IMG/VR virus record: IMGVR_UViG_2703718837_000002
Strand: one strand, 5' to 3'
Origin: a virus
Taxonomy: Duplodnaviria; Heunggongvirae; Uroviricota; Caudoviricetes
Length of the DNA stretch: 38,688 bases
The translations under genes and the position numbers were made by a program. Within the stretch, counting starts at the first letter, position 1, and every line of letters starts with the position of its first letter. Under the pieces are notes generated by a model. It had not been told where the DNA came from, searched no databases, and saw nothing but the letters and a program-made list of their open reading frames with translations. This document shows positions 4,207-31,159 of this stretch, piece by piece.

Positions 4207-7194
4207 ATGAGCTTAAGCGATCAGGTGGTAATGGCCACCAGCATAGAAACGCTGATCGAGCTGCTAAAAAACCTGCCCGATTTCGGGCGGGTTTCGTATG
4301 TGGTGACAGCGAAGGGTGACGAGGTAAAAACAGCGTTTGATATCGTCGATGCCTCGGCTCTTTTGGTATCCAATACTCTGGACGGGAAAATTAACCCTGA
4401 CTATCCCCAGGAACTTCAGCCGCGCGACCGGACCCGCGCATCCAGCCTTCTTCAGGTTAACCAGATATCCAAGGATTTGCGGCCAGCTCAGCTTACCGAT
4501 TCCGGTTTATCCAGCCATGGCGCGCCGATAATTGGCGAGGACAATGCCGTTGAGTCAGGTAATGGGCGGACCATGGGGATCATTAAAGCCTATCAGGACG
4601 GTAATGCGGATCGGTATCGGGAGTACCTGATTGAACATGCGACCGAATTCGGCATACGGCCTGAAAAGGTTGAATCAATGACGGCTCCGGTACTGGTGCG
4701 CCGCCGGTTAACTAAGGTTGACCGCGTTCAGTTTGCCAAGGACTCAAATATTTCTGATCTTCAGGAAATGGCAGCCAGTGAAAAGGCTTTTGTTGATGCC
4801 GACAGCATAACACCGGCGATGATGGCGTTGTTTAACCCGTCAGAAAGCGGAGATCTGCTTAGCCGCAGTAATGACGCGTTTATTCGCGGATTCATGACGC
4901 AAGTTGGTGCCACACAGGCTGCTGGCCTTGTAACGGAAGATGGGCGACCAACACGGCAACTTGTAGACCGTATACAAAACGCGATCTTTGCCAAGGCATA
5001 TAAGGATGCGCGCCTGGTAAGGATGGTTGCAGAAGAACCTGATCCGGATATGCGTAATGTTCTGACGGCGCTTAATGCGGCGGCCAATGATTTTGTCCAG
5101 ATGCAGGCTTTATCAGGAGAAGCGCACAAGCAGGCTGTGACAACTATCGTTGATGGTATTGAAACAGCGGATAGCCTCGATAAAAAGGCGCTGGCGGCAT
5201 TGAAAGATGCGGTAGACCTGGTAAGGCAATCGAAGGAGTCAGGCCAACATATTACCGATGTTATTGCTCAGGGGGATATGTTCAGCGAAACAGCCCCGGA
5301 AGTGAAAGCTCTCGCGTTGTTCATCGTCGCGAATAACCGTAGCGCGAAGCGTATGGCCACCGCCTTTAAATTGATGGCTCAACGTATCAATGATGAGTTA
5401 CAGCACCAGGGCCAGGCGCTCGGGGATATGTTTGGCGGCGGCGATGTGTCGTTACAGGATATCCTTCGCCAGGTATCTCAGGAACTGGAAAACGAAGGTA
5501 TGCAAGGGATATCTGGCGGTCTTTTCGAGTCAGCTTCCGGCGGTAGTTACAACGGTGTTGCTCCATATACCAGCTTGCTATTACATCGGGCATCCGGCAT
5601 CAAAGACATTATTCATCTGATCAGGCTGCTATCCCGTACAGATCCCCAGGATGAACAGCTTGTTCAAGTGCTTGCGCATTTTGTTCGAATGCCTGTTGCC
5701 GACGTGAAAAAATGGTGCCGATTATTCGGTATCAGCAATTCGTTACTTCGCGGCTTGTTAAATCACGCATCCTCCCTTGGGCGCGATGGCTTTGACGAGA
5801 TAGCGCAGGCTATAAAAAACGGAGATATGCCACCAGCTATTGACTGGTTTTCCATTCGCCCAACCAGGGTGAAAGCATTCCTTAGCGCGGCGCATTCGGC
5901 ATCACCATTGGCAGAAATGGTTCAGAGGTTGTCGCTCATATTCACAGACCATACCGCGTTGGGTGATCTGACTCTGGACGAGATGAAAGAAGCCTCCATT
6001 CAGTGGTCCGATCAACAAAATGAGGTTAACTCTGACTTCTTGCCAGCATTCAGGAAGGCCGTTAGTAAAGCGGATGATGCCCGTGGAATTCTGAAGGCAT
6101 TTAAGGCATTGCAAAGTCGGGTTAATAAACATGTCGGTGATATCGATGGGGTAACGGCGGAAGGCAGGGATATCCTTAAAGAGCACGGCATAACGCCAGA
6201 GTTTATTGATGAGATCAGGACGGATATGCAGCGTGAGGTCGTATCGTCCCTGCAAATTGTAGCCAGAGCGTTGGCGGATGCTAATCCGAAGAGTGCGGCC
6301 ATTGTTAACCGGGTTATTGGTGATATTGAAGCATCGGAGGGCATGGGGGCGCTGAAACTCTTCCTTTCGCGAGCGTTTAATCCTAACGGCAATATTCTCC
6401 CTGGCATTATTGGTGAGGCTAAAAGGTATGTCAGTGAAGAAGAACTTGAGCAGCTTGACCAACTACTTAAGCGATTCTCATATAACCCGCAGACACGCTG
6501 GCAAATGAATCAGCGAAGTATGGGTTCGGTTCACGAGAAAGTGTTATCTGCCATGAACAGTGCGATCGCAAACTCATCCGTATCTGAAGAAAAAGCTCTT
6601 GAGTGGGCCGACTCTTTTATCACGGAAGAAGTGGAAGAAGCCCGCGCTGGACAGAATGGTGGGATAGACCTGCGCAAGGAACTTGCTGATATTTATCGCC
6701 TGACCGGCGGTAAAATTTCGACCTTATCAAAGGTGGTTCACCACCAGGGAAGGGCATATGCAAATCTTAATGGTGTTGTTGCTGTCAATTTGAACGATGA
6801 AAATGCAAGTGCACTGTGGCACGAGCTGGGTCATCATCTTGAGTACAGTAACCCTGGTTTGTTAGAGAAAGCCCGGTCATTCCTGAAGGCCAATGTTGAA
6901 GGGGATAAGCCATCTTTCGTCAATATCGGTGGGCGTGGCAAGCCTGAATGGTGCTTCAGATCTCGATTGAGTAATATTTATATGGCGAAGGTATACCCGC
7001 CAGCCTCAGTAAGTAACACCGGGAAAATTCGGCAGAAATCACCGACTATTTCCAAAACGTCAGCAACGGAAGTATTCTCTATGGCTCTTCAGTTGTATCA
7101 TGACAAAGAGGCCGCTGCCGCATCACTGATGAATGGTGACGGATTGCTGGAACTGTTATTAGGTGTGGCAAAGGAGCTAAATAATGCAGATTAA
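4207..7194 (+). CDS. ddrB: DdrB, large polyvalent virion protein with a ParB-like N-terminal region and an HEXXH metallopeptidase-like motif
   Basis: 995 aa. The N-terminal motifs ELQPRDR, GAPIIG and VESGNGR are typical of ParB/Srx-like domains. HELGH is encoded at 6820-6834. Assigned by P1 synteny. Confidence 0.8.
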   Translation: MSLSDQVVMATSIETLIELLKNLPDFGRVSYVVTAKGDEVKTAFDIVDASALLVSNTLDGKINPDYPQELQPRDRTRASSLLQVNQISKDLRPAQLTDSGLSSHGAPIIGEDNAVESGNGRTMGIIKAYQDGNADRYREYLIEHATEFGIRPEKVESMTAPVLVRRRLTKVDRVQFAKDSNISDLQEMAASEKAFVDADSITPAMMALFNPSESGDLLSRSNDAFIRGFMTQVGATQAAGLVTEDGRPTRQLVDRIQNAIFAKAYKDARLVRMVAEEPDPDMRNVLTALNAAANDFVQMQALSGEAHKQAVTTIVDGIETADSLDKKALAALKDAVDLVRQSKESGQHITDVIAQGDMFSETAPEVKALALFIVANNRSAKRMATAFKLMAQRINDELQHQGQALGDMFGGGDVSLQDILRQVSQELENEGMQGISGGLFESASGGSYNGVAPYTSLLLHRASGIKDIIHLIRLLSRTDPQDEQLVQVLAHFVRMPVADVKKWCRLFGISNSLLRGLLNHASSLGRDGFDEIAQAIKNGDMPPAIDWFSIRPTRVKAFLSAAHSASPLAEMVQRLSLIFTDHTALGDLTLDEMKEASIQWSDQQNEVNSDFLPAFRKAVSKADDARGILKAFKALQSRVNKHVGDIDGVTAEGRDILKEHGITPEFIDEIRTDMQREVVSSLQIVARALADANPKSAAIVNRVIGDIEASEGMGALKLFLSRAFNPNGNILPGIIGEAKRYVSEEELEQLDQLLKRFSYNPQTRWQMNQRSMGSVHEKVLSAMNSAIANSSVSEEKALEWADSFITEEVEEARAGQNGGIDLRKELADIYRLTGGKISTLSKVVHHQGRAYANLNGVVAVNLNDENASALWHELGHHLEYSNPGLLEKARSFLKANVEGDKPSFVNIGGRGKPEWCFRSRLSNIYMAKVYPPASVSNTGKIRQKSPTISKTSATEVFSMALQLYHDKEAAAASLMNGDGLLELLLGVAKELNNAD

Positions 7195-10660: not shown

Positions 10661-10693
10661 ATTGCTCTAATAAATTTGATTTATTAGAGCAAA
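10661..10693. promoter_or_regulatory. paired inverted C1 operators, left end of immI-like module 1
   Basis: A perfect ATTGCTCTAATAAATTT at 10661-10677, plus an inverted copy. Together they form TTGCTCTAATAAAT-TTG-ATTTATTAGAGCAA, 14-bp perfect arms. Confidence 0.85.
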
Positions 10694-10718: not shown

Positions 10719-10747
10719 TTGATCTCATCGTCGTTCAGGCTTATAGT
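10719..10747 (+). promoter_or_regulatory. sigma70 promoter candidate for the c4-icd-ant transcript (module 1)
   Basis: TTGATC-N17-TATAGT. Both hexamers and the spacing are conserved in module 2. A GATC lies within the -35 element. Confidence 0.55.
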
Positions 10748-10778
10748 TCCACCGTCGTAGCAAATTCTGCGACCAGGT

Positions 10779-10799
10779 TTGACAGCCTGAATACGAATG
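10779..10799 (+). promoter_or_regulatory. upstream c4-complementary site pair a1/b1 (module 1)
   Basis: TTGACAG-N7-ACGAATG. Both heptamers are exact complements of the c4 loop elements at 10904-10923. Confidence 0.55.
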
Positions 10800-10866
10800 C
10801 GGACAACCGCAGATTTCCGATATTGCGGTATTTTTGTGTCCGTAAACCACGTTACGCCCGAATTAT

Positions 10867-10943
10867 GGTGGGGCGTGATGGGGAGGCTTCGGCCTGCTGG
10901 TTTCATTCGTGCCAGTCTGTCAACCCTGTCACGTCCTGCCACC
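10867..10943 (+). ncRNA. c4: c4 antisense RNA, 77 nt (module 1)
   Basis: 77 nt. A closing stem (GGUGG...CCACC and CGUGA/UCACG), an AGGC-UUCG-GCCU hairpin, and a single-stranded CAUUCGU-GCCAGU-CUGUCAA element complementary to the sites flanking it. The size matches the published 77 nt c4 RNA. Confidence 0.8.
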
Positions 10944-10946
10944 TGT

Positions 10947-10985
10947 TTGACAGCGGGTCGCAGGTTGTTAAACCTACGAATGAGG
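10947..10985 (+). promoter_or_regulatory. c4 target a'/b' overlapping the icd ribosome binding site (module 1)
   Basis: TTGACAG-N22-ACGAATGAGG. The b' element abuts and overlaps the SD GAGG, 8 nt before the icd ATG. Confidence 0.65.
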
Positions 10986-10993
10986 CCGTAACT

Positions 10994-11215
10994 ATGGTTA
11001 ATGCCAATCCTTGCGCACGCCCTGAATTTATCTGGCGCTTTTACTCCTGCCAGAAACGTCACTATCACTTCGTAATTGCACCGACAGAAGATGAGGCCCG
11101 CTCTCTGCTTCCTGACGCTCCCTGCATTTTCTCTGCCCGCTTTTCCACTGATTCGCGCAACTCTCTCAGTTACTGGTGCCTCCCTGTTAACGCTTCTGCT
11201 CAGGAGGGACTATGA
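10994..11215 (+). CDS. icd: Icd-like 73-aa protein (module 1)
   Basis: 73 codons, the published size of P1 icd. Its stop overlaps the ant1 start (ATGA). Conserved in all three modules. Confidence 0.8.
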   Translation: MVNANPCARPEFIWRFYSCQKRHYHFVIAPTEDEARSLLPDAPCIFSARFSTDSRNSLSYWCLPVNASAQEGL

Positions 11216-12303
11216 GAACGTCATTAGTCACCCGTGAAGAAATGATTGAGGCAATTGAACAGCACACATCCTGTATCAGTACCAGGGATATACCGGGTGT
11301 TATTGCCAACTACTTCATGATCACCAAACAACTTTACCGGAGAAAGGACAAGAACGCGGTTCACCGCATTCTGTTGTCTGATATCCGCGAATACCTGCTC
11401 GAACAGGGTCGTCTTGATTATGCAACCGTAACCGCCGAAGCACGCAAGGAGGCACACAGGATGAAAGCAACTAATGTTAAATCAGAAAAAATTACCCTGC
11501 CTTCAGTTCAGGAATCCGAGCTGGTGGTTGTTCAGAATCAGTCTGATGAAATTCCCGTTCTGGAATGGCTGGGAGTGCGTGTCGTAACGACCGAAACTCT
11601 TGCTAGAGGGTATGGTACCGATGAAGCCAATATTCGTAAAAATTTGTCTCGCAACTCCGATCGCTTTGAAGAAGGCAAGCATTACTATCTCTTAACCGGT
11701 TCAAAGTTAAAGGAATTTAAAAGGCTAGTGACTATTAGTCACTTGGTTAGCAAATATACAAGTCAGGTAATTCTCTGGACAGAGCGCGGCGCTGCACGCA
11801 TGTCTAAGATCGTGGACACAAATGAAGCATGGGCATTCTTTGAAAAACTGGAAGACAGCTACTTCCGACAAAAAGAACAGCAACCGGTCTCAATTCCCCA
11901 GACGCTTCCAGAAGCTCTGCGCCTGGCTGCCGAGTTGGCAGAACAGAAAATGCAACTGGAACAACAGCTGGTGGCCGCAGCCCCTAAAGTCGATTTTGCC
12001 GACCGGGTATCAGTGGCTAAGGGGATCCTGATTGGAAATTTTGCAAAGGTTGTTGGACTTAAGCAAAACGCGCTGTTTGCCTGGTTACGGGAGAACGGCA
12101 TCCTGATTGCGTCCGGCGGACGTAAAAATGTACCGTTTCAGCAGTACATAAACGCCGGGTATTTCACGGTGAAAGAAGTGGTGCTGGATGATGAAGATGG
12201 CTACCAGATACGGTTGACGCCCCAGCTAACGGGGAAAGGCCAGCAGTGGCTGACGCGTAAACTGCTCGATGCAGGTTTATTAAAGCCTGTAGCGGCTGAG
12301 TGA
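11212..12303 (+). CDS. ant1: antirepressor Ant1 (363 aa), with in-frame Ant2 starting at 11461
   Basis: An ORF6N/KilA-N-like middle region (VRVVTTETLARGYG...RFEEGKHY) and a KilAC/ANT C-terminal domain. An internal ATG at codon 84 is preceded by AAGGAGG and gives 280 aa, consistent with P1 Ant1 (~42 kDa) and Ant2 (~32 kDa). Confidence 0.85.
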   Translation: MRTSLVTREEMIEAIEQHTSCISTRDIPGVIANYFMITKQLYRRKDKNAVHRILLSDIREYLLEQGRLDYATVTAEARKEAHRMKATNVKSEKITLPSVQESELVVVQNQSDEIPVLEWLGVRVVTTETLARGYGTDEANIRKNLSRNSDRFEEGKHYYLLTGSKLKEFKRLVTISHLVSKYTSQVILWTERGAARMSKIVDTNEAWAFFEKLEDSYFRQKEQQPVSIPQTLPEALRLAAELAEQKMQLEQQLVAAAPKVDFADRVSVAKGILIGNFAKVVGLKQNALFAWLRENGILIASGGRKNVPFQQYINAGYFTVKEVVLDDEDGYQIRLTPQLTGKGQQWLTRKLLDAGLLKPVAAE

Positions 12304-15175: not shown

Positions 15176-18100
15176 ATGAACAAGCTATCTATGGGGGTGT
15201 TTCGCTGTTCAAGTGTCAGCGAAATATTGAAATATATTAGGGCAATAACATTTCGCCGAGCGCCGATTAAATACGGCGTGGAAAAGGTGGAAGGCAAAAG
15301 CTATGACCGACTGCGCCGGGAGGCGAATCAGAAGGCGATAGATTTGCTTAATTCGCTGGTGGACGGCGCGACACTGACAGATGAACAGCGCCAGATCCTG
15401 GCTGGGTACACCGGTGAAGGCGGCATTGGCGGGTCCGTCTCCGAATATTACACACCAAAGCCGATCGCTGAAGGTGTCTGGGAGATCATGAAGCTCTACG
15501 GCGCGGACGTAGGTAACACTCTGGAACCATCGGCGGGAACCGGCGTTTTTAATGAGACAAAACCGGTTGGTACGGTGATGACCGCGACTGAGATCAGCAG
15601 TGTTTCCGGTCGTATAAACCAGTTGTTACACCCGGAAGACAGCGTACAGATTTCCCCGTTCGAACAGCTGGCTATAAGCACCCCTAACGATTCATTCGAC
15701 CATGTTGTGGGTAACGTTCCGTTCGGCGGTCGTGATAACACACGCAACATCGATAAGCCTTACGCAGAAGAAACGGACATGGGTTCTTACTTCATGCTCC
15801 GCATGCTGGACAAGATAAAGCCTGGCGGATTCATGTGTGTGATTGTGCCGCCGTCAATTGTTTCAGGTTCAAACATGAAGCGGTTACGCCTGCGCCTATC
15901 CCGTAAAGCTGAATTTCTTGGCGCTCACCGCTTGCCTACCGGTACTTTTGACGCAAACGGGACCAGTACAGTCGTTGATGTGGTGCTGATGCGCAAACAT
16001 CCGGCAGAGATGGCTGAGAAAATCCCCCTGGTGGATGAAAGCACTCTTGAATCGGCAAATGTGCTTTGGCCAACGTTTATTTCTGGCAAGTGGTTTGAAA
16101 AGGACGGCCGCCGGTTTGTTCATGGTACCCAGGAAAAGGGCTTCCAGGGGCGTATTGAGGTTCGTGCCGACGGGCAGATTGATAACCAGGCTCTTAAAGC
16201 GAAGCTGATTCATCGTTTCGAAAGTCGTATCGACTGGTCTTTGCTCGATATGGCTGAACCGTCACCGACCGCAGATGTTGTTGATGAAGGGGAAATGCGC
16301 CTGATTAATGGCGTATGGCAAAAATATGCTGGTGGTCGCTGGATTGAAGCTGATGCTGGTAAGGAGCTTAAGATTGATGCTGCCAGTTATGGCGCGGATA
16401 GCTGGGAGGCTCTTCAGCGTAACCTGACTACAACAGAAGGCCGTCTCGGTATGACATTTACCCAGATGGCAAATGTCCGCGATAAGTACACCACATCAAT
16501 CAGCGACGATATGGTGCAGCTGGTGGACTGGATTAACAGCCAGCCTGAAAAATACCGTGAACGCTTGTATCGCGGGGCGATGATTGGCCGGATGTTAATT
16601 GAATATCAGGATATGAAGGCCGCTGGGCATAGTGCTGAACAAATCGAACAGCAGCGCCTTTCTCTGGTGTCCCGTTTGCAGGCAGAGATTGACCGTTTTG
16701 GTAACCCCGGTCGCGGTCCGATAGCTAAATTATCGGGAAGCGGTGCGCGCGCCTGGTTTGCTTTCCGTGGTGCAATTAAGCTGGATGGCACTATTTCTGA
16801 CGAGCTGACAGGAAAGCTGGTTACGCATGATTCCAGCGCCAGTTATGACTCCACCAGCTATCAGGACACCCTGCGTTATCTCTATAGCGATCTTACCCGC
16901 GATCCAATCCAGCTCGATGATTTCCGCCTTGCGTTTACCGGCGAACTGCCAGCCAGTGATGAAGAGTTGCTTAATTTATTGGCCAGCACCCCTGGTATTG
17001 CGGTTTCACCGTATGGCGGGATTGTTCCGTTCGCCCGCGCCACCAGCGGCGACATTAACGAGATAGTGGCTCCAAAACAGGAATTCCTTGCCACACTCCC
17101 CGACGGTCCAGTAAAGAACAACGTCCTTAATCAGCTGGCAGCGATCGAAGAGAAGCGCATCAAGACGCCAGCAGAGAATATCCGCTTTAAGCTCAATAGC
17201 CGTTGGTTCGACCGCTCCGTCATTCTGGAGTTTTTGCAGGAAAACGGCTATCCGGATCTGCGCTATGTGCAGTCAGTGCAGCTGGAAGGCGACGAAATGG
17301 TTTCTGACACCTATCACGGTGGTGATGGTCTGTTCGTCGGACACCGATACGGTGTCGTCCAGCGCAAGGATAAAGAAACAGGAGAGATCCGCTACGAGTG
17401 GGACCGTAAATCAGGTGAAAACGCGACCGGGTTCCCGGCACAGCTGGAAAAGTATCTCAATGGTGCGCGTATCGGTGGCAAAGATAGCGCGACGGCGAAC
17501 GGCTACCGCGAGCAGATGGCACTGCTTGAGGACCAGTTCAATAAGTGGATCAAGACGCACGATCGCTACGATGAGCTGGTTGCCAAATACAACGATGTGT
17601 TCAATAGCAATATCCCGTATGAACACTCTGGCGATCCGCTTGGGTTGAAGGGATTAAGCGGTAAGCGCCAGCCATTTGATTACCAGAATAGCGAGGTGCG
17701 CCGACTGTCCGAAGATGGGCGCGGCATCCTGGGCTTCGGTACCGGGCTGGGTAAAACCACGACCGCGCTGGCGCTTGAGGCGTTCAACTATGAGAACGGT
17801 CGCTCCACCCGTACTGCTTATGTAGTGCCTAAATCAGTGCTGGAAAACTGGTATTACGAAGCAAAAGAGTTCCTGAGTGAAGAAGCCTTCAGTAACTACT
17901 TGTTCGTTGGACTGGATGTACTAATGGACGGCGATCAGATTCGCCAGGTTCCGGTGCTCGATGAGAACGGTAAACCTGTCCTTGGTGCTGATGGCACTCC
18001 ACTTATGCGCGATGCCCTTAAACTGGCAGATGAAGCCACTATCACGGCGCGTATGAACGCGATCCCGCACTCAAATTACCGTGCAGTCGTGTTTACCAAA

Positions 18101-21100
18101 GAACAATACGCCCGCATTCCGCTACGTGATGACACCGTAGATGAGCATGCACAGGATATGCTTTATGACTTCGTTGCTGCCGGGCGCGTAGCCAGCGCAA
18201 TGGACTCCGACTCCCACCGCAAAGAGGCCGCGCGTCGCCGGGTATTGTCGGAGTATTCAGATACCGGTACCGAAAAAGCAGAGAAGTATCCGTACTTTGA
18301 GGATATGGGCTTCGACAGCGTGATTGCTGACGAAGGCCACAACTACCGCAATAGCTATAAAAATGGTCGCGAAGCGTCACAGCTGGCCTATCTGCCCACC
18401 AGCGCGGTGGCGCAATCGGCGCGAGATATGGCAATCAAAAACGCGTACCTGATGAAAAAGAATGGTGGGCGTGGACCGGTTCTCCTGACTGCAACGCCAG
18501 TCGTTAACACCCCGATCGATGCATACAACATGCTTTCTCATGTTCTGCCGAAGGAATACTGGCAGAAGATGGGGATCTACGGTCCTGATGACTTCGTTAA
18601 ATTCTTCGGCAAGACCAGGCTGGAAACGGTACAGAAAATTAGCGGTGAAGTTGAAGAAAAAATGGCGCTGGTGGGCTTTGAAAACCTTGATGCGCTGCGC
18701 GGTATATTCCATCGCTGGGTAACGCTTAAAACGGCGGAAGACGTTAAGGATACCGTGGAGATCCCGGAGCTGGACGAACACCAGCAGGATGCACCACTTA
18801 CTGAAGAACAACTGGCGGCGTATGAAGAATTGCGTCAGCAGGCGGAAGCGGCGGCCAAAGCCAACAATGGCGTAACGACCTCGGTCAATGAAGACGGCGT
18901 GATTGAGCACGAGAAAGCCCGTCCGATCTTCTCAATAATCAGGGATATGGACCGCGTATGTACTGACATGGACCTGTACTATCGCCGGATCACCTATCGT
19001 TTCCTGCCGGAGTATGCCGATGCGGTGCAGCAGCTGGCGGACAGTTTGCCTAAACAAGCCACCAGCGAAGACGACGACAGTGATGATTCAATCACGCAGC
19101 AATCGCAATACTCCCTGATAGATAAGGGCGAGTTTATTCAGTTGCAGGTTCCGGAAGCGTTCGAGCAGGAAGTGAATAAGCGCCTGGCCAGGTTTGGCAT
19201 TGACGAACAGACCGTAACTCACCCCGTTACGCCCAAATACGCGAAGCTGATTGCCACGCTGAAGGAGTTTTTCCCGGAAGGTAAGCAAATCATCTTCACG
19301 GACGAAAAAACGCAGCACCAGAAGCTCAAGCGCATTATCTGCAATGCTCTTAACCTTGAACCTTCAAAGGTGGGGATCCTGAATGCTCAGACGGTTGCCG
19401 AGGCAGGTAAAACCGGTAAGAAACTGAAAGCGGTTAAACCGCCGAAAGAGTTACCGGATGAACCAACAGATGCACAGATAGCGAAATACAACGAGCAAAT
19501 GGCTCTGTATGACGCCTATATCGCGCAGCAAAATGAAATGTCGTTGGGCGGTCTGGAAAAGATTGCAGCCGACTTCCAGGAGGGCCGGACTCCGATCATC
19601 ATCTGCAACAAAAAGGCAGAGGTGGGTATCAACCTGCATCGAGGAACGACTGACATCCATCATCTGACGTTGCCGTGGACTCCAGCCAGTATCGCACAAC
19701 GTAACGGTCGCGGTGCCCGAGTTGGCTCCAACCGTGCAAGCGTTCGCGTTCACTACTACTGCGGCAAGGGTTCTTTCGATGAATACCGACTGAAGACGCT
19801 GAAGCGTAAAGCAGGCTGGATCTCCGATATCCTCCGTTCAGATAAGTCAGAAATGGAGAACGCCGACGCCAACGATATGATCGAAATGCAGATGTATACC
19901 GCTAAGGATGATGGCGAACGTCTGGCAATGATGCAGGTTCAAATGGATAAGGCGAAAGCCGCGCAACGCGCTCGCCAGAAAGAACAGGCTACTATCGACC
20001 TTCAGAACTACATCAAGGCGCAGCACGCAGCTGGCGAGGATGTGGAGGTACTTACCGCTGAATTAGAGCGAAGCAAAGCGGAACTTGAAAAGACCACCGC
20101 CGACGTCGACAAATTCAAACAAGCAGCAATGGCCAAAGCAGCTGATAACGCAGACTGGAAGGCACGTTGGGGGAGTGTCCATAACGCTGACCGTATGTTG
20201 TTAGCTCGATATCGCGCTTCGTTAAAAAATGCTATTCAACAGAAGGCTAATATCTCTCAAGCCATCTCCCGCTATGAGAAATTATTGAACCGTACCCAGA
20301 AGGCCGCGACGGATATCAAACGCCTGCGCCCGCTGGTGGAGGATGCAATAAATAAAGGCATTCTGGATGTTGATCCTGACCTGGTTAACCATGCGAGTGA
20401 GTTCCTTGTTATCGGCGATCGCTCATGGCGTGTAGGCCAATACTATGATTGTGCCGGTGATATCGTCCGCATTAAGTCTCTGGACTTCGACAGCCAGCGC
20501 GCAGACGTGGAGATCATCTTTACCTTCAAAGGCACAAAATCTGGTAACTGGGATGTGAAGACGCTGGATAAACAGGTGGATGTAACTCCCGATGAAGATG
20601 CTGTTATGCAGAAAATCAGTGGTGGCGTCTCCATCGCCGGGATTAACGACATCATTTCCTGTGACGATTTCTACCGTTTCCAGCAGCGCGGCATGATCAA
20701 AATCACTGACTCGTACGGCGTTCAGACTACAGAGTCAGGCTATAGCATTGATTTTGTTGGTACCTATACGGACCCACTGAAGCATGCGGTTTACCCGGAT
20801 CGCCGTGACGGCGCGCTGAAGTCGTCAATTGCAAAATGGGTGCTTGGTATGATGTCTGAAGGGAATAACCGCCAGGTCCGTTTGGCAGAAGTATTCCTGA
20901 CTGAACTGTTTGGCTCCAATTATGGCGATGTAATCGCGTCATATGGAGATACGCTATCCCCTGAAGCAATTCAGGAGAAAATAGCGGATGCGATCGCCAG
21001 AATGCCGGAGAAAACAAGCCAGGGGGCTACTCGTAACGGGGATTCTGAACTTGAGGTCACCAATGCCATTTTCGGTACCCATGAGTTCCGGGCGTCAGAT

Positions 21101-21943
21101 TATGAGATCACCACAGCACAGTTTGGCACCATTGGCATTTACAGCAATAAAGACGAGATCAAGCAGGCAATGGACGCAGCAAGCGCGCGCATCGCAGCAG
21201 AACGGGAAGCCAATCTGAATCATGCAGTCGCCGCGCTGACTCAATCGTGGGTAACAGCAATCAGGGAGGCCGCCACCACAGGGAAAATCACACCGGCAAT
21301 TGCGGATGTCGTAAACGACGGCTCTAAATTTATGGATGCCTATCAAATGGATGCGGTGCAGTTGCCATCAGCCTATGGCCAACTCAGCTATCGCATGACC
21401 TACAATCTGGTATCAATGTTTTCCGACCTTGCCATCCTTGGGCTGGTGGACCTTAACGAGGTTACGCCGGAATTGCTCAGCATTCGCAATAATCATGTGG
21501 AGATATTGCACAGAATTAACACGGTACTTGCCGGGCGCACCGATGAAGAAAAACAGGCAGACGCTGATCGGATAAACCTGGCCCTAGGCAACATCACGGA
21601 GGAAGAAATTGCCGCCAGAAACGAGAAACAAGAAGAGTTATCATCAATACAGGGTGATGCCACCAGCATAGCTCAGTCTCTTGGTCTGAATTATCGCGTA
21701 TCCACCGCCGACCTGAAGATGATGTACGCACCAAAATTCGCCGCTGGCGAGGTATTTGGGCTTCAGGAGGCGTCCGGCATGAAAGGCATTCTTTTCCGTG
21801 CGAAAGACGCAATCAAGGAAAAATTCGGCGCTCGCTGGCTGCCAGCGAAGGCGAAGAACAGCGATTTCCCAGGCAACTGGTGGATTATCGAGACAAAACA
21901 CAACGTGGCGGACGTTCTGGCCGTCATCCAACAATACGCATAA
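15176..21943 (+). CDS. darB: DarB, antirestriction virion protein (N6-adenine methyltransferase plus SF2 helicase fusion)
   Basis: 2255 aa, the size I recall for P1 DarB. It has an MTase motif (VGNVPFG) and helicase motifs GTGLGKTT, DEGH, LLTATPV and QRNGRGAR. Confidence 0.95.
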   Translation: MNKLSMGVFRCSSVSEILKYIRAITFRRAPIKYGVEKVEGKSYDRLRREANQKAIDLLNSLVDGATLTDEQRQILAGYTGEGGIGGSVSEYYTPKPIAEGVWEIMKLYGADVGNTLEPSAGTGVFNETKPVGTVMTATEISSVSGRINQLLHPEDSVQISPFEQLAISTPNDSFDHVVGNVPFGGRDNTRNIDKPYAEETDMGSYFMLRMLDKIKPGGFMCVIVPPSIVSGSNMKRLRLRLSRKAEFLGAHRLPTGTFDANGTSTVVDVVLMRKHPAEMAEKIPLVDESTLESANVLWPTFISGKWFEKDGRRFVHGTQEKGFQGRIEVRADGQIDNQALKAKLIHRFESRIDWSLLDMAEPSPTADVVDEGEMRLINGVWQKYAGGRWIEADAGKELKIDAASYGADSWEALQRNLTTTEGRLGMTFTQMANVRDKYTTSISDDMVQLVDWINSQPEKYRERLYRGAMIGRMLIEYQDMKAAGHSAEQIEQQRLSLVSRLQAEIDRFGNPGRGPIAKLSGSGARAWFAFRGAIKLDGTISDELTGKLVTHDSSASYDSTSYQDTLRYLYSDLTRDPIQLDDFRLAFTGELPASDEELLNLLASTPGIAVSPYGGIVPFARATSGDINEIVAPKQEFLATLPDGPVKNNVLNQLAAIEEKRIKTPAENIRFKLNSRWFDRSVILEFLQENGYPDLRYVQSVQLEGDEMVSDTYHGGDGLFVGHRYGVVQRKDKETGEIRYEWDRKSGENATGFPAQLEKYLNGARIGGKDSATANGYREQMALLEDQFNKWIKTHDRYDELVAKYNDVFNSNIPYEHSGDPLGLKGLSGKRQPFDYQNSEVRRLSEDGRGILGFGTGLGKTTTALALEAFNYENGRSTRTAYVVPKSVLENWYYEAKEFLSEEAFSNYLFVGLDVLMDGDQIRQVPVLDENGKPVLGADGTPLMRDALKLADEATITARMNAIPHSNYRAVVFTKEQYARIPLRDDTVDEHAQDMLYDFVAAGRVASAMDSDSHRKEAARRRVLSEYSDTGTEKAEKYPYFEDMGFDSVIADEGHNYRNSYKNGREASQLAYLPTSAVAQSARDMAIKNAYLMKKNGGRGPVLLTATPVVNTPIDAYNMLSHVLPKEYWQKMGIYGPDDFVKFFGKTRLETVQKISGEVEEKMALVGFENLDALRGIFHRWVTLKTAEDVKDTVEIPELDEHQQDAPLTEEQLAAYEELRQQAEAAAKANNGVTTSVNEDGVIEHEKARPIFSIIRDMDRVCTDMDLYYRRITYRFLPEYADAVQQLADSLPKQATSEDDDSDDSITQQSQYSLIDKGEFIQLQVPEAFEQEVNKRLARFGIDEQTVTHPVTPKYAKLIATLKEFFPEGKQIIFTDEKTQHQKLKRIICNALNLEPSKVGILNAQTVAEAGKTGKKLKAVKPPKELPDEPTDAQIAKYNEQMALYDAYIAQQNEMSLGGLEKIAADFQEGRTPIIICNKKAEVGINLHRGTTDIHHLTLPWTPASIAQRNGRGARVGSNRASVRVHYYCGKGSFDEYRLKTLKRKAGWISDILRSDKSEMENADANDMIEMQMYTAKDDGERLAMMQVQMDKAKAAQRARQKEQATIDLQNYIKAQHAAGEDVEVLTAELERSKAELEKTTADVDKFKQAAMAKAADNADWKARWGSVHNADRMLLARYRASLKNAIQQKANISQAISRYEKLLNRTQKAATDIKRLRPLVEDAINKGILDVDPDLVNHASEFLVIGDRSWRVGQYYDCAGDIVRIKSLDFDSQRADVEIIFTFKGTKSGNWDVKTLDKQVDVTPDEDAVMQKISGGVSIAGINDIISCDDFYRFQQRGMIKITDSYGVQTTESGYSIDFVGTYTDPLKHAVYPDRRDGALKSSIAKWVLGMMSEGNNRQVRLAEVFLTELFGSNYGDVIASYGDTLSPEAIQEKIADAIARMPEKTSQGATRNGDSELEVTNAIFGTHEFRASDYEITTAQFGTIGIYSNKDEIKQAMDAASARIAAEREANLNHAVAALTQSWVTAIREAATTGKITPAIADVVNDGSKFMDAYQMDAVQLPSAYGQLSYRMTYNLVSMFSDLAILGLVDLNEVTPELLSIRNNHVEILHRINTVLAGRTDEEKQADADRINLALGNITEEEIAARNEKQEELSSIQGDATSIAQSLGLNYRVSTADLKMMYAPKFAAGEVFGLQEASGMKGILFRAKDAIKEKFGARWLPAKAKNSDFPGNWWIIETKHNVADVLAVIQQYA

Positions 21944-24144: not shown

Positions 24145-24161
24145 ATTGCTCTAATAAATTT
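24145..24161 (+). promoter_or_regulatory. C1 operator, left end of immI-like module 2
   Basis: A perfect ATTGCTCTAATAAATTT. The inverted partner seen in module 1 is degenerate here (TTATTGAAACAA). Confidence 0.85.
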
Positions 24162-24202: not shown

Positions 24203-24231
24203 TTGATCTTCCTGTTGTTCAGGCTTATAGT
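24203..24231 (+). promoter_or_regulatory. sigma70 promoter candidate for c4-icd-ant (module 2)
   Basis: TTGATC-N17-TATAGT, with hexamers identical to module 1. Confidence 0.55.
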
Positions 24232-24262
24232 TCCTACGTCATAGCAAATTCTGCGACCGGGT

Positions 24263-24283
24263 TTAGCAGCCTGAATGTACATG
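24263..24283 (+). promoter_or_regulatory. upstream c4-complementary site pair a1/b1 (module 2)
   Basis: TTAGCAG-N7-GTACATG, exact complements of the c4 elements at 24389-24408. Confidence 0.55.
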
Positions 24284-24351
24284 CGGACAACCGCAGATTT
24301 CCGATATTGCGGTATTTTTATGTCCGTAAAACCGCGTTACGCCCGAATTAT

Positions 24352-24428
24352 GGTGGGGCGTGATGGGGAGGCTTCGGCCTGCTGGTTTCATGTACGCCAG
24401 TCTGCTAACCCCGTCACGTCCTGCCACC
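24352..24428 (+). ncRNA. c4: c4 antisense RNA, 77 nt (module 2, different specificity)
   Basis: The same scaffold as module 1. The recognition elements read CAUGUAC and CUGCUAA instead of CAUUCGU and CUGUCAA. Confidence 0.8.
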
Positions 24429-24431
24429 TGT

Positions 24432-24470
24432 TTAGCAGCGGGTAGCAGGTTGTTAAACCTGTACATGAGG
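24432..24470 (+). promoter_or_regulatory. c4 target a'/b' overlapping the icd ribosome binding site (module 2)
   Basis: TTAGCAG-N22-GTACATGAGG, with the SD GAGG 8 nt before the icd ATG. Confidence 0.65.
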
Positions 24471-24478
24471 CCGTAACT

Positions 24479-24700
24479 ATGGTTAATGCCAATCCTTGCG
24501 CACGCCCTGAATTTATCTGGCGCTTCTATTCTTGTCAAAAACGTCACTATCACTTCGTTATCGCACCAACAGAAGATGAGGCACGTTCTCAGCTTCCGGA
24601 TGCTCCCTGCATTTTCTCCGCCCGCTTTTCTACCGATTCGCGCAATTCTCTCAGTTACTGGTGCCTCCCTGTTAACGCTTCGGCTCAGGAGGGGCTATGA
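24479..24700 (+). CDS. icd: Icd-like 73-aa protein (module 2)
   Basis: 73 codons, differing from the module 1 copy at one residue (L/Q). ATGA overlap with ant1. Confidence 0.8.
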   Translation: MVNANPCARPEFIWRFYSCQKRHYHFVIAPTEDEARSQLPDAPCIFSARFSTDSRNSLSYWCLPVNASAQEGL

Positions 24701-25809
24701 GAACGTCATTAGTCACCCGTGAAGAGATGATCGAGGCAATTGAACAGCACACTGCCTGTATCAGTACCAGGGATATACCAGGTGTTATTGCCAACTACTT
24801 CATGATCACCAAACAACTTTACCGGAGAAAGGACAAGAACGCGGTTCACCGCATTCTGCTAACCGATATCCGTGAATACCTGCTCGAACAGGGTCATCTG
24901 AATTATGCAACCGTCGCAGCCGAAGCACGCAAGGAGGCACACAGAATGAAAGCAACTAACGTTAAATCAGAAAAAATTCATGCACCTTCAGTTCAGGAAT
25001 CAGAGCTGGTGGTTGTTCAGAATCAGCCTGATGAAATTCCCGTTCTGGAATGGCAGGGAGTACGTGTCGTGACAACCGAAACTCTTGCTAGAGGGTATGG
25101 GACCGAAACTAATAACATCAAAGTTAACTATACGCGTAATGCTGATCGCTTTGAGGAAGGTAAACATTACTTTCTACTAACTGGTTCAAAATTAAAAGAA
25201 TTGAAGGACAAGGTTACTCAAAGTAACTTAGTCGCACCGCGAGCAAAGCACCTCACTCTCTGGACGGAACGCGGCGCAGCCCGCCACGCTAAAATGATCG
25301 AAACCGATCAGGCATGGGCATTCTTTGAAAAACTGGAAGACAGCTACTTCCGACAAAAAGAACAGCAACCGGTTGCAATCCCCCAGACGCTTCCAGAAGC
25401 CCTGCGCCTGGCTGCCGAACTGGCTGAACAAAAGCAACTTCTGGAACAGAAAGCCCACCAGCTAAATCAGCAGCTGGTGGCCGCAGCCCCCAAAGTCGAT
25501 TTTGCCGACCGGGTATCAGTGGCCAAGGGGATCCTGATTGGGAATTTTGCAAAGGTTGTTGGACTTAAGCAAAACGCGCTGTTTGCCTGGTTACGGGAGA
25601 ACGGCATCCTGATAGCGTCCGGCGGACGTAAAAATGTGCCGTTCCAGCAATACATCAACGCCGGGTATTTTTCTGTGAAAGAAGTGGTGCTGGATGATGA
25701 AGATGGCTATCAGATACGACTGACGCCCCAGTTAACGGGGAAAGGCCAGCAGTGGTTGACGCGTAAACTGCTCGATGCTGGCTTGTTAAAACCGGTGGCG
25801 GCTGAGTGA
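24697..25809 (+). CDS. ant1: antirepressor Ant1 (370 aa), with in-frame Ant2 starting at 24946
   Basis: The same architecture as module 1. The central ~65 aa are divergent, and there is a 7-aa insertion in the coiled-coil linker. Confidence 0.85.
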   Translation: MRTSLVTREEMIEAIEQHTACISTRDIPGVIANYFMITKQLYRRKDKNAVHRILLTDIREYLLEQGHLNYATVAAEARKEAHRMKATNVKSEKIHAPSVQESELVVVQNQPDEIPVLEWQGVRVVTTETLARGYGTETNNIKVNYTRNADRFEEGKHYFLLTGSKLKELKDKVTQSNLVAPRAKHLTLWTERGAARHAKMIETDQAWAFFEKLEDSYFRQKEQQPVAIPQTLPEALRLAAELAEQKQLLEQKAHQLNQQLVAAAPKVDFADRVSVAKGILIGNFAKVVGLKQNALFAWLRENGILIASGGRKNVPFQQYINAGYFSVKEVVLDDEDGYQIRLTPQLTGKGQQWLTRKLLDAGLLKPVAAE

Positions 25810-28587: not shown

Positions 28588-29439
28588 ATGATAAATTATG
28601 TCTACGGCGAACAACTGTACCAGGAGTTCGTCAGCTTCAGGGATCTCTTTCTAAAAAAAGCTGTTGCACGCGCCCAACACGTTGATGCCGCCAGCGACGG
28701 TCGTCCTGTTCGCCCGGTTGTCGTTCTGCCGTTCAAAGAAACGGACAGCATTCAGGCTGAAATTGATAAATGGACTTTAATGGCGCGGGAACTGGAACAG
28801 TACCCAGACCTCAATATCCCAAAGACTATTTTATATCCAGTGCCTAACATCCTTCGCGGTGTGCGTAAGGTTACAACTTATCAGACAGAAGCTGTGAACA
28901 GCGTCAACATGACCGCTGGCCGCATTATTCATCTGATTGATAAGGACATTCGCATCCAGAAAAGCGCGGGGATCAATGAGCACAGTGCGAAATACATAGA
29001 GAACCTGGAAGCAACAAAAGAGCTAATGAAGCAGTACCCGGAGGATGAAAAATTCCGTATGCGTGTACACGGCTTTAGCGAAACAATGCTGCGCGTCCAT
29101 TACATTTCCAGTAGCCCTAACTACAATGATGGTAAATCAGTTAGTTACCATGTGCCGCTGTGTGGTGTGTTTATCTGCGATGAAACTCTCCGTGATGGAA
29201 TCATCATCAACGGTGAATTCGAGAAAGCAAAATTTAGCCTTTATGACTCTATAGAACCGATCATCTGCGACCGCTGGCCGCAGGCAAAAATATATCGCCT
29301 GGCAGATATTGAAAATGTAAAAAAACAAATTGCCATCACTCGCGAAGAGAAAAAGGTCAAATCAGCCGCATCAGTTACGCGCAGCCGTAAAACCAAGAAG
29401 GGGCAGCCAGTAAACGACAACCCCGAAAGCGCGCAATAA
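28588..29439 (+). CDS. c1: C1 repressor of lysis
   Basis: 283 aa, the size of P1 C1. SD GGAGGAGG. Located next to coi and the operator cluster. Confidence 0.97.
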   Translation: MINYVYGEQLYQEFVSFRDLFLKKAVARAQHVDAASDGRPVRPVVVLPFKETDSIQAEIDKWTLMARELEQYPDLNIPKTILYPVPNILRGVRKVTTYQTEAVNSVNMTAGRIIHLIDKDIRIQKSAGINEHSAKYIENLEATKELMKQYPEDEKFRMRVHGFSETMLRVHYISSSPNYNDGKSVSYHVPLCGVFICDETLRDGIIINGEFEKAKFSLYDSIEPIICDRWPQAKIYRLADIENVKKQIAITREEKKVKSAASVTRSRKTKKGQPVNDNPESAQ

Positions 29440-29442
29440 ATT

Positions 29443-29465
29443 ATGCCCGGCATCAACCGGGCATT
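29443..29465. terminator. bidirectional hairpin between convergent c1 and ant (module 3)
   Basis: TGCCCGG-N6-CCGGGCA, T-rich on both sides. It sits 3 nt after the c1 stop and 7 nt after the ant stop. Confidence 0.6.
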
Positions 29466-29471
29466 CTTCCA

Positions 29472-30584
29472 TTATTCAGCCGCCACCGGTTTTAACAAGC
29501 CAGCATCGAGCAGTTTACGCGTCAACCACTGCTGGCCTTTACCCGTTAATTGGGGCGTCAGCCGTATCTGGTAGCCATTTTCATCATCCAGCACCACTTC
29601 TTTCACCGTGAAATACCCCGCGTTGATGTACTGCTGGAACGGCACATTTTTACGTCCACCGGACGCTATCAGGATGCCGTTCTCCCGTAACCAGACAAAC
29701 AGCGCGTTTTGCTTAAGTCCAACAACCTTTGCAAAATTCCCAATCAGGATCCCTTTAGCTACTGATACCCGGTCGGCAAAATCGACTTTAGGAGCGGCGG
29801 CCACCAGCTGCTGATTTAGCTGGTGGGCTTTCTGTTCCAGAAGTTGCTTTTGTTCAGCCAGCTCGGCAGCCAGACGCAGGGCTTCTGGAAGCGTCTGGGG
29901 GATTGCGATCGGTTGCTGTTCTTTTTGTCGGAAGTAGTTGTCTTCCAGTTTTTCAAAGAATGCCCATGCTTCATTTGTGTCCACGATCTTAGACATGCGT
30001 GCAGCGCCGCGCTCTGTCCAGAGTGTAAGGCTTCTGGCGTTCTTACCAACAGAGTAACTTCCGGTTACTCTGTTCTTAAATTCTCTTAATTTTAAACCAG
30101 TTAGAAGAAAGTAATGCTTACCTTCTTCAAAGCGGTCAAGGTTGCGAGACAAATTGTTGCGAATATTGGCTTCATCGACCCCATACCCTCTAGCAAGAGT
30201 TTCGGTTGTCACGACACGTACTCCCTGCCATTCCAGAACGGGAATTTCATCCGGCTGATTCTGAACAACCACCAGCTCTGATTCCTGAACTGAAGGTGCA
30301 TAAATTTTTTCTGATTTAACGTTAGTTGCTTTCATTCTGTGTGCCTCCTTGCGTGCTTCGGCTGCGACGGTTGCGTAATTCAGATGACCCTGTTCGAGCA
30401 GGTATTCACGGATATCGGTTAGCAGAATGCGGTGAACCGCGTGTTTGTCCTTTCTCCGGTAAAGTTGTTTGGTGATCATGAAGTAGTTGGCAATAACGCC
30501 CGGTATATCCTTGGTACTGATACAGGCAGTGTGCTGTTCAATTGCCTCGATCATCTCTTCACGGGTGACTAATGACGTTCTCAT
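29472..30584 (-). CDS. ant1: antirepressor Ant1 (370 aa), with in-frame Ant2 starting at 30335 (module 3)
   Basis: The same architecture as modules 1 and 2. A third variant of the central region. AAGGAGG precedes the internal ATG. Confidence 0.85.
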   Translation of the reverse strand: MRTSLVTREEMIEAIEQHTACISTKDIPGVIANYFMITKQLYRRKDKHAVHRILLTDIREYLLEQGHLNYATVAAEARKEAHRMKATNVKSEKIYAPSVQESELVVVQNQPDEIPVLEWQGVRVVTTETLARGYGVDEANIRNNLSRNLDRFEEGKHYFLLTGLKLREFKNRVTGSYSVGKNARSLTLWTERGAARMSKIVDTNEAWAFFEKLEDNYFRQKEQQPIAIPQTLPEALRLAAELAEQKQLLEQKAHQLNQQLVAAAPKVDFADRVSVAKGILIGNFAKVVGLKQNALFVWLRENGILIASGGRKNVPFQQYINAGYFTVKEVVLDDENGYQIRLTPQLTGKGQQWLTRKLLDAGLLKPVAAE

Positions 30585-30802
30585 AGTCCCTCCTGAGCAG
30601 AAGCGTTAACAGGGAGGCACCAGTAACTGAGAGAGTTGCGCGAATCAGTGGAAAAGCGGGCAGAGAAAATGCAGGGAGCGTCAGGAAGCTGAGAACGGGC
30701 CTCATCTTCTGTCGGTGCAATAACGAAGTGATAGTGACGTTTCTGGCAGGAATAGAAGCGCCAGATGAATTCAGGATGAGTTGGGGTAGGGACAGTAGCC
30801 AT
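30581..30802 (-). CDS. icd: Icd-like 73-aa protein (module 3, variant N-terminus)
   Basis: 73 codons. The first 9 residues differ (MATVPTPTH versus MVNANPCAR) and the rest is essentially identical. ATGA overlap with ant1. Confidence 0.75.
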   Translation of the reverse strand: MATVPTPTHPEFIWRFYSCQKRHYHFVIAPTEDEARSQLPDAPCIFSARFSTDSRNSLSYWCLPVNASAQEGL

Positions 30803-30810
30803 AATGGCAG

Positions 30811-30852
30811 CCTCCTTTGACTAAGTTAAGGAGCTACCGCGTGAGGTCTCAA
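30811..30852 (-). promoter_or_regulatory. target a'/b' overlapping the icd ribosome binding site (module 3)
   Basis: The minus strand reads TTGAGAC-N24-GTCAAAGGAGG. Both elements complement the loop of the RNA at 30860-30938. The SD GGAGG is included. Confidence 0.6.
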
Positions 30853-30859
30853 TCTCAAT

Positions 30860-30938
30860 GGCGGTAGCACTGACTGGGTTGAGACTACCGGCGTCAAAGG
30901 GAACCGGCCTGCCTTTCGGCAGCCCAGCCAGCACTACC
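30860..30938 (-). ncRNA. c4-analogous antisense RNA on an unrelated scaffold (module 3)
   Basis: About 76-79 nt. A 13-bp closing stem (GGUAGUGCUGGCU / AGUCAGUGCUACC, including G-U pairs), a CUGCC-GAAA-GGCAG hairpin, and the single-stranded elements CCCUUUGAC and GUCUCAA. Confidence 0.65.
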
Positions 30939-30985
30939 ATTGATTTCGGAGCTAAACGCTACGTATGGCTGTGCGATGGCATGAC

Positions 30986-31011
30986 ACAAAAAAAAGACGC
31001 TTTCGGCGTCT
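30986..31011 (-). terminator. intrinsic terminator inside the module 3 leader, between the decoy site and the RNA gene
   Basis: The minus strand reads AGACGC-CGAAA-GCGTCT followed by T8. Confidence 0.55.
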
Positions 31012-31017
31012 GTGTCG

Positions 31018-31042
31018 CCTTTGACATTATTCGGGGTCTCAA
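31018..31042 (-). promoter_or_regulatory. upstream complementary site pair a1/b1 (module 3)
   Basis: The minus strand reads TTGAGAC-N10-GTCAAAGG. Confidence 0.5.
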
Positions 31043-31142
31043 TCCCGGCACCCGTTTTAATGAGGTGCCTGATAAGCATAAACCGAAAATGCCTCAAGGC
31101 GCAAGAGGTCAGGTTCAATGTAACATCGGCAGTTAAAAAACA

Positions 31143-31159
31143 CAATTTATTAGAGCAAA
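31143..31159 (-). promoter_or_regulatory. C1 operator, start of module 3, abutting the pacB stop
   Basis: The minus strand reads TTTGCTCTAATAAATTG, 15 of 17 matches. Confidence 0.7.

Follow-up and report, generated by a model that had tools for sequence, protein, structure and literature searches.

Three immI-type operons with different C4 antisense RNA codes in a segment of a putative P1-like phage-plasmid

In phage P1, blocked translation of icd causes Rho-dependent termination before the antirepressor gene ant. The mechanism of the P1 immI operon, with its C4 antisense RNA, has been described (PMC12197685; PMC8198154; PMC8546580), and processing of C4 to about 77 nucleotides (nt) by RNase P and repression of ant in trans are known for P1 only, according to the references cited in PMC8546580. 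The heteroimmunity of P1 and P7 is ascribed to c4 (Citron & Schuster 1990, as cited in PMC12197685). A related arrangement, isrK-orf45-anrP, is known from the Salmonella prophage Gifsy-1, where the IsrK small RNA (sRNA) in trans activates the downstream antirepressor 140-fold and a processed STnc1160 RNA accompanies it; Hfq binding and trans-activation by IsrK have been shown experimentally only for this system (PMC4825925). Here we analyse three modules of the immI type (M1, M2 and M3) in a 38,688-nt stretch of IMG/VR virus record IMGVR_UViG_2703718837_000002, the whole of which is called the window below. The facts on P1 and P7 used for comparison were taken from GenBank annotations and secondary accounts.

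We consider it probable that the window carries three immI-type operons, all complete and each having an RNA key of its own with locks to match, on a P1-like phage-plasmid. The P1-type anatomy is complete in all three (Table 1), comprising a C1 operator, a leader with the sense copies a1 and b1, the C4 RNA, the targets a2 and b2 at the icd ribosome site, icd and ant, and the three paralogous operons lie within 21 kb. Both icd and ant are intact in each module and share an ATGA stop/start overlap each time. When aligned with the immI regions of P1 and P7, the heptamers coincide exactly with a1, b1, a', b', a2 and b2 as annotated in those phages. An earlier note on this DNA had stated that M1 and M2 share one RNA scaffold and differ in two heptamers, a and b, each of which occurs at three sites; every coordinate proved exact. 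It had also placed b2 against the icd Shine-Dalgarno sequence, and at base level the two meet in each module; in M1, the Shine-Dalgarno GAGG (10982-10985) begins with the last G of b2. The third code that it assigned to M3, TTGAGAC together with GTCAAAGG, was found for each element at three sites on the minus strand.

The differences between M1 and M2 are concentrated in these codes. Two positions in a and four in b give six differences, which recur at three sites, so that the 18 coordinated substitutions counted earlier are all present. The non-coding leader of 253 nt differs at 27 positions between the two modules, and 18 of them lie inside the six heptamers, which together cover 42 nt (Fisher p = 4e-10). 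All 18 retain complementarity. The number of heptamer copies in the window is uninformative, with 4-9 of each on both strands and about 4.7 expected by chance; the unusual feature is the homologous placement of the heptamers, not their copy number.

Comparison with the described phages divides the codes into an old and a new part. Both a alleles are already known, TTGACAG of M1 being that of P1 (and D6) and TTAGCAG of M2 that of P7, whereas the b codes ACGAATG (M1) and GTACATG (M2) differ from those of P1 (GTTAGTG), P7 (GATTGTG) and D6 (ACTTACG). In each case b1, b' and b2 change together. P1 and P7 differ at 2 + 2 positions of a and b, M1 and M2 at 2 + 4. The placement of specificity in the a'/b' loops with compensating changes at the targets is that of P1/P7 heteroimmunity, although there each phage has one code and here several codes stand in one replicon. 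The locus thus extends the P1/P7 heteroimmunity principle, the mechanism itself not being new; what is new is the additional specificities, the mosaic M3 described below and the multiple copies.

M1 and M2 resemble P1 immI in the order of the parts, the C4 scaffold, the positions of C1 operator and promoter, the contact of b2 with the icd Shine-Dalgarno and the icd/ant overlap, and their nucleotide identity to P1 from leader to icd is 85-88% (88% for M1 leader plus icd). Unlike P1 immI, the modules in the window have neither sim upstream nor kilA-repL downstream, their Ant proteins carry an ORF6N central domain in place of the middle region of P1 Ant1, and three modules stand where P1 has one.

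All three C4 RNAs are full-length matches to Rfam family RF01695 (model positions 1-87), scoring 69.8-75.4 bits against a gathering score of 45. In their predicted minimum-free-energy folds, for which the Rfam consensus structure was also consulted, b' would occupy a 9-nt hairpin loop and a' a 7-nt junction. The upstream sense copies a1/b1 belong to the c4-a1b1 motif in M1 and M2, and in M3 to an isrK element instead. Sites of the C1 operator type number seven in the window against 0.01 expected, and binding of C1 to them is predicted from these matches. Family membership, the alignment with P1 and P7, covariation and duplex energies all agree with the view of the earlier note that the modules encode differently keyed c4 repressors of the P1/P7 type, as far as sequence and modelling can indicate.

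M3 is, by sequence comparison, a mosaic, with a leader, a C4 and the first nine icd codons of Gifsy-1 isrK type on the same icd-ant body as M2. It resembles the Gifsy-1 operon in its isrK leader and terminator, its C4-type RNA and a small open reading frame coupled by ATGA to an antirepressor gene. It differs in that the small frame is a P1-type icd, the antirepressor is a P1-like Ant with ORF6N and KilAC domains, antQ is missing, and the module lies on a P1-like plasmid beside c1 and behind a C1 operator-like site.

Two more distant systems share parts of this logic. In satellite phage P4 (CI RNA, seqA and seqC), a processed small RNA likewise lies between up- and downstream complementary sites of its own transcript, an analogy drawn by the authors of PMC4825925. 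However, P4 CI brings transcription of replication genes to a premature end rather than blocking an icd ribosome site, and the window contains no P4 genes; family membership was compared via Rfam clan competition only. The sar RNA of the P22 immI region also restrains an antirepressor (PMC12197685), but it is transcribed in true cis-antisense to the ant leader, has no separate key and lock loops and belongs to an unrelated RNA family.

Natural variants demonstrate that complementarity within each module is strongly conserved. Scanning IMG/VR for the conserved sequences that flank the b' loop gave at least 120 loci, and each of the 120 untruncated cases (116 IMG/VR loci, M1, M2, P1 and P7) has exact copies of the reverse complements of a' and b' on the upstream as well as the downstream side. 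Among the matches listed, the P1 scaffold occurs in 14 allele combinations, formed from two alleles of a and at least eight of b, implying that a and b reassort. Across 56 unique leaders, the columns of highest entropy are the six variable bases in b1, b' and b2, together with two bases in a1, a' and a2. In 40 distinct leaders, 99.8% of the cells are paired between the C4 loops and a2-b2, with 138 double-sided changes, and 100% between the C4 loops and a1-b1, with 141; sliding the partner by 1-3 columns left 27-52% paired, and shuffles about 80%. For the isrK-type scaffold (48 unique contexts; two a and at least four b alleles), a2/b2 match C4 in 48 of 48 and a1/b1 in 45 of 48. In two IMG/VR isrK-type loci (L170 and L177), a1 has the other a allele than a' and a2 while b1, b' and b2 agree, which marks them as recombinants; a perfect match of a1 is therefore not obligatory.

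To estimate specificity, we summed duplex energies for the b' loop and the a' junction only, against the region from a2 through b2 to the Shine-Dalgarno, for M1, M2, M3, P1 and P7, with the last two as calibrators. In this crude model the cognate loop duplexes range from -19.3 to -21.8 kcal/mol and the non-cognate ones from -6.3 to -15.8 kcal/mol, and the cognate pair is favoured by 6-13 kcal/mol, which is comparable to or above the difference for P1 and P7. The cross terms are -9.3 and -14.3 kcal/mol for P1/P7 and -8.9 and -10.9 kcal/mol for M1/M2. The eight b alleles differ pairwise at two or more of six positions, their cognate duplexes lying at about -11 and the cross pairs at -0.6 to -6.8 kcal/mol. 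Since the energy gap is like that of P1 and P7, which are described as heteroimmune via c4 (PMC12197685; PMC6906374), M1, M2 and M3 are predicted to discriminate about as well as these phages do. Differences in cofolding energy (ddG) of full-length C4/target pairs from RNAcofold were dropped; they were identical for every C4 of the P1 scaffold and are uninformative because loop-loop contacts inside a folded C4 cannot be represented, and the loop-restricted energies were used instead.

Three codes in one genome, which the earlier note pointed out, are unusual in comparison with P1 and P7 (one P1-scaffold module each) but not unique, for complete relatives carry four. The closest complete plasmid to M1, the closed plasmid pEA18_2 of Escherichia albertii (99.7% identity over M1), has four C4 genes, namely the M1 code between lyz and pro, the M2 code on the cre side, the P7 code at the canonical site and an isrK-type code other than that of M3 between pacB and c1. 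The closed E. coli plasmid pMTY1886 likewise has four C4 modules with four different a+b codes, and stacking is therefore recurrent. In one IMG/VR contig, the M1-M2 spacing of 13,485 base pairs (bp) is that of the window, but a of M2 and the code of M3 are different, suggesting that codes are exchanged on an otherwise conserved background. That the triple arrangement is an artefact of assembly or a chimera, or that the heptamers match by chance, is extremely improbable. Near-identical scaffolds could mislead short-read assemblers, and the one mismatched leader considered below (L049) lies at a contig end; however, the closed plasmids are occupied at the same sites with four modules each, each of the three modules has flanking genes of its own, in synteny with P1, and the tests of enrichment and covariation rule out chance.

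A search of PLSDB with the M1 leader returned 747 places in 633 records, which implies that most P1-like plasmids have one P1-scaffold module and a minority more. Among the matches listed from IMG/VR, 20 contigs have one P1-type module together with one of isrK type, and a few contigs have three modules. In species-representative genomes, most of which are without P1-like plasmids, the P1-scaffold pattern had no match, and the scaffold appears to be confined to P1-like plasmids. P1-like elements occur in 798 of 5426 complete E. coli genomes (about 15%). A full-text literature search, which did not cover the key P1/P7 papers and so leaves room for a prior description, found no description of the C4 RNAs of the extra modules, their distinct codes or the allele repertoire. 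Gilcrease and Casjens (2018) reportedly may already discuss duplicated c4 genes. P1-like plasmids are on record with extra icd-ant copies, both in the res-mod region and in the pacB-c1 interval (PMC6906374), and a second c4-icd region in a D6-like plasmid (PMC6799933).

We infer expression and processing of the RNAs, actual orthogonality and an ecological role along the following lines. Each operon would be transcribed from its C1-operator-controlled promoter region, and the transcript would yield a processed C4 RNA of about 77-88 nt, whose hairpin loop b' and junction a' would pair with b2 and a2 of the same operon. Because b2 overlaps the icd Shine-Dalgarno, pairing would block icd translation, and because ant is coupled to icd through the ATGA overlap, antirepressor synthesis would be blocked too, leaving the C1 repressor active. 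The upstream copies a1 and b1 would serve as competitor or anti-antisense sites for C4; those of M3 would lie on a separately terminated IsrK-like sRNA. Since the a+b code differs per module, each C4 would be expected to silence the ant of its own operon only. Several keys would then make a prophage immune to superinfecting relatives that bear any of the matching locks, whereas an infecting phage with several locks would escape a resident prophage that is short of even one key, a form of stacked heteroimmunity.

Several observations weigh against this reading. M1 shares a with P1 and M2 with P7, and partial cross-talk with canonical modules via a is possible; in the crude loop model, the C4 of M3 has a non-negligible energy of -15.8 kcal/mol on the target of M1. 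In a single deviant among the natural leaders aligned (L049, positions 4693-4912 at the end of a 4,928-bp IMG/VR contig), C4 and b1 have the M1 code ACGAATG and b2 has the P1 code GTTAGTG. This leader may be a chimera assembled across the repeated scaffold; otherwise it is a natural recombinant, whose mismatch of key and lock would leave ant unrepressed. Among the 30 replicons that carry at least two modules, a full a+b code is never repeated within a replicon, but given the allele frequencies this avoidance reaches only a rough p of about 0.1 with interrelated replicons, and selection for orthogonality within a genome is not demonstrated. In pMTY1886, two divergent c4-icd-ant modules around a mat-like gene (L202:16883-21514) have b ACTTACG in common and are distinguished by a alone (TTGACAG in one, TTAGCAG in the other). 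Finally, the central domain of Ant is unlike that of P1 Ant1, so that the target of Ant need not be C1. The rule that co-resident modules never share b, which held in 29 replicons, was discarded on account of pMTY1886, and other replicons have modules with the same a and different b. The divergent pair of pMTY1886 offers a natural test case for whether a alone sets specificity.

Code sharing of this kind would fit an alternative in which the extra modules are redundant immI copies derived by recombination, with codes from different donors, substantial cross-talk and, if functional, a role as C1-controlled amplifiers. Failure of C1 would fire all ant operons and sharpen induction, and the code differences would have no role of their own. 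The C1 operators at all three modules, the 88-99% identity of Icd and Ant between modules, which makes their outputs look redundant, the free reassortment of a and b alleles in mosaic modules, and the statistically insignificant avoidance of repeated codes are consistent with such copies. We nevertheless regard this explanation as unlikely. The three sites are complementary in essentially every variant, which argues for strong purifying selection on the code of each module; variation is concentrated in the codes and not in the scaffold; P1 and P7 are described as heteroimmune with fewer code differences (PMC12197685); and the full code was not repeated in any of the 30 replicons.

The antirepressors bear on another alternative. 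Icd proteins are 88-99% identical among the modules and 81% identical to P1 Icd, and the Ant proteins (363, 370 and 370 amino acids (aa)), with ORF6N and KilAC domains, are 88-90% identical to one another. To P1 Ant1 they are 59% identical; the N-terminal region of about 95 residues and the C-terminal KilAC domain are conserved, an internal Met is kept at the P1 Ant2 start position, and the central domain is replaced. The paralogues vary most in the central ORF6N domain (about residues 136-190) and are nearly invariant in their N-terminal and KilAC parts; the target or partner of the central domain may differ between modules. This divergence would suit icd-ant modules that serve as weapons or defences against other elements, with C4 as a private safety catch and not as a P1-type immunity determinant; Ant would be directed at the repressors of co-resident, unrelated prophages, or else Icd would be an effector of abortive infection or cell division. 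The leader and C4 of M3 point the same way, being of the Gifsy-1 isrK type that in Salmonella controls a different antirepressor, AnrP (PMC4825925), as does the location of the modules in known variable hot spots of P1-like plasmids (PMC6906374). However, the conserved termini, including the Met at the Ant2 start, are highly similar to P1 Ant1, the C1 operators tie the modules to the P1 immunity circuit, and nothing direct points to another target. We therefore consider this second alternative very unlikely.

Returning to the reading as separately keyed immI operons, we tentatively propose a wider role, somewhat short of an even chance of being right. Up to four stacked operons with combinatorial keys (two a by at least eight b alleles, and two by at least four in the isrK type) could form both a multi-key shield and a multi-lock weapon, whose code diversity would be driven by negative frequency-dependent selection between competing phage-plasmids. 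If this is true, the multi-key shield would confer immunity to every relative with a matched lock, the multi-lock weapon would escape, and induce, any resident prophage lacking one key, and the system would amount to a natural programmable RNA 'barcode' immunity, of which the literature searched gave no description. The comparison of P1 with P7 made in 1990 is widened here to the scale of populations, with discrete C4 codes that change at three places and can be stacked in a replicon. P1-like elements often carry resistance genes, and coexistence, exclusion and induction among them may depend on these codes. The natural loop/target pairs of 7-8 nt on a fixed scaffold are also candidate orthogonal translational repressors for synthetic biology.

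Table 1. Parts of the three immI-type modules in the window.
Feature	Position	Strand	Remarks
M1 C1-repressor operator	10661-10677	+	exact ATTGCTCTAATAAATTT; aligned with annotated P1 operator Oc4/Op51
M1 sigma-70-like promoter TTGATC-17-TATAGT	10719-10747	+	position of P1 promoter P1c4 (P51b), by alignment
M1 leader	10741-10799	+	Rfam c4-a1b1 (RF03163) at 10741-10793, 57.1 bits, gathering score 46.7
M1 a1 TTGACAG	10779-10785	+	inside c4-a1b1 motif
M1 b1 ACGAATG	10793-10799	+	starts on last base of c4-a1b1 motif
M1 C4 antisense RNA	10861-10946	+	Rfam RF01695, 69.8 bits, gathering score 45
M1 b' CATTCGT	10904-10910	+	hairpin loop of C4 (predicted fold)
M1 a' CTGTCAA	10917-10923	+	single-stranded junction of C4 (predicted fold)
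M1 target region	10947-10985	+	a2 TTGACAG 10947-10953; b2 ACGAATG 10976-10982
M1 icd	10994-11215	+	73 aa, 81% identical to P1 Icd; ATG at 10994; stop overlaps ant start (ATGA)
M1 antirepressor	11212-12303	+	363 aa; ORF6N + KilAC; termini like P1 Ant1, central domain replaced
M2 C1 operator	24145-24161	+	exact consensus
M2 leader	24225-24283	+	Rfam c4-a1b1 at 24225-24277, 47.5 bits, gathering score 46.7
M2 a1 TTAGCAG	24263-24269	+	inside c4-a1b1 motif
M2 b1 GTACATG	24277-24283	+	starts on last base of c4-a1b1 motif
M2 C4 antisense RNA	24346-24431	+	Rfam RF01695, 70.8 bits
M2 b' CATGTAC	24389-24395	+	predicted C4 fold
M2 a' CTGCTAA	24402-24408	+	predicted C4 fold
M2 target region	24432-24470	+	a2 24432-24438; b2 24461-24467, adjoining icd Shine-Dalgarno
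M2 icd	24479-24700	+	73 aa, 99% identical to M1 Icd
M2 antirepressor	24697-25809	+	370 aa; ORF6N + KilAC
M3 C1 operator-like site	31143-31159	-	2 mismatches to consensus
M3 leader, isrK-type sRNA element	30990-31068	-	Rfam RF01394, 59.8 bits, gathering score 50
M3 a1 TTGAGAC	31036-31042	-	within isrK-type leader
M3 b1 GTCAAAGG	31018-31025	-	within isrK-type leader
M3 intrinsic terminator	30995-31011	-	ends short isrK-type form (predicted)
M3 C4 antisense RNA, different scaffold	30857-30944	-	Rfam RF01695, 75.4 bits
M3 b' CCTTTGAC	30893-30900	-	reverse complement of b
M3 a' GTCTCAA	30879-30885	-	reverse complement of a
M3 target region	30811-30852	-	a2 30846-30852; b2 30814-30821, overlapping icd Shine-Dalgarno GGAGG
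M3 icd	30581-30802	-	73 aa; versus M2, only first ~9 residues differ (mosaic junction)
M3 antirepressor	29472-30584	-	370 aa; convergent with c1 (28588-29439, +)

The window is, by sequence comparison, a segment of a P1/SJ46-like phage-plasmid. P1, P7, SJ46 and many Escherichia and Salmonella plasmids of this kind show about 95-98% identity to it over the shared parts. According to the open reading frame list and the annotation of relatives, its gene order from ssb onwards reads ssb, lyz, M1, pro, prt, darB (2255 aa), ulx and lxc, followed by two small genes, M2, c8, cre, cra, c1, M3 on the minus strand and pacB, and finally by pacA, lpa, pdcB, doc and phd. All three insertion sites, lyz-pro for M1, lxc-c8/cre for M2 and c1-pacB for M3, are non-canonical and fall in hot spots of variation already known from P1-like plasmids (PMC6906374). 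The canonical immI site of P1, between sim and kilA-repL, lies outside the window. By analogy with the complete relatives, which carry four modules, the source replicon of the window probably has a fourth, canonical one.

The gene darB (15176-21943) is present here and absent from the otherwise close pEA18_2 (L126 in our comparison), which has res-mod; this difference is another swap at a known variable hot spot beside M2. In the 32-bp gap between c1 (ending at 29439, plus strand) and the convergent ant of M3 (ending at 29472, minus strand), a GC-rich hairpin at 29443-29464 may shield c1 from antisense transcription that reads through the end of the ant operon.

Two features of the P1-type leader lie outside the code. 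Just 3' of the -10 box of the leader promoter, a short block at 10749-10755 is highly variable among the 56 natural leaders and stands apart from the six code sites. Past b1, a nested hairpin is formed by CCGCAGATTTCCGATATTGCGG and then TATTTTTG (10806-10835; the M2 equivalent at about 24290-24320), with a fold z-score of -3.1. In the predicted fold it resembles an attenuator or terminator and would correspond to the IsrK terminator of M3; should it terminate, a short a1b1 RNA might also come from P1-type modules.

The modules between pacB and c1 in pEA18_2 (L125:41054-41300) and pMTY1886 (L202:27037-27256) have a third variant of the C4 scaffold, which pairs through G-U wobbles, b' CCTTGGAC standing against b1 and b2 GTCTAAGG and a' AGGCCAA against a2 TTGGTCT. 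The NCBI annotation places a spurious 'ash family protein' open reading frame over this RNA region. In about 16 isrK-type contigs of IMG/VR at the same site (L128-L201), the 1.4 kb past C4 map onto c1 and not onto icd-ant, which points to shorter modules that may lack a full-length ant.

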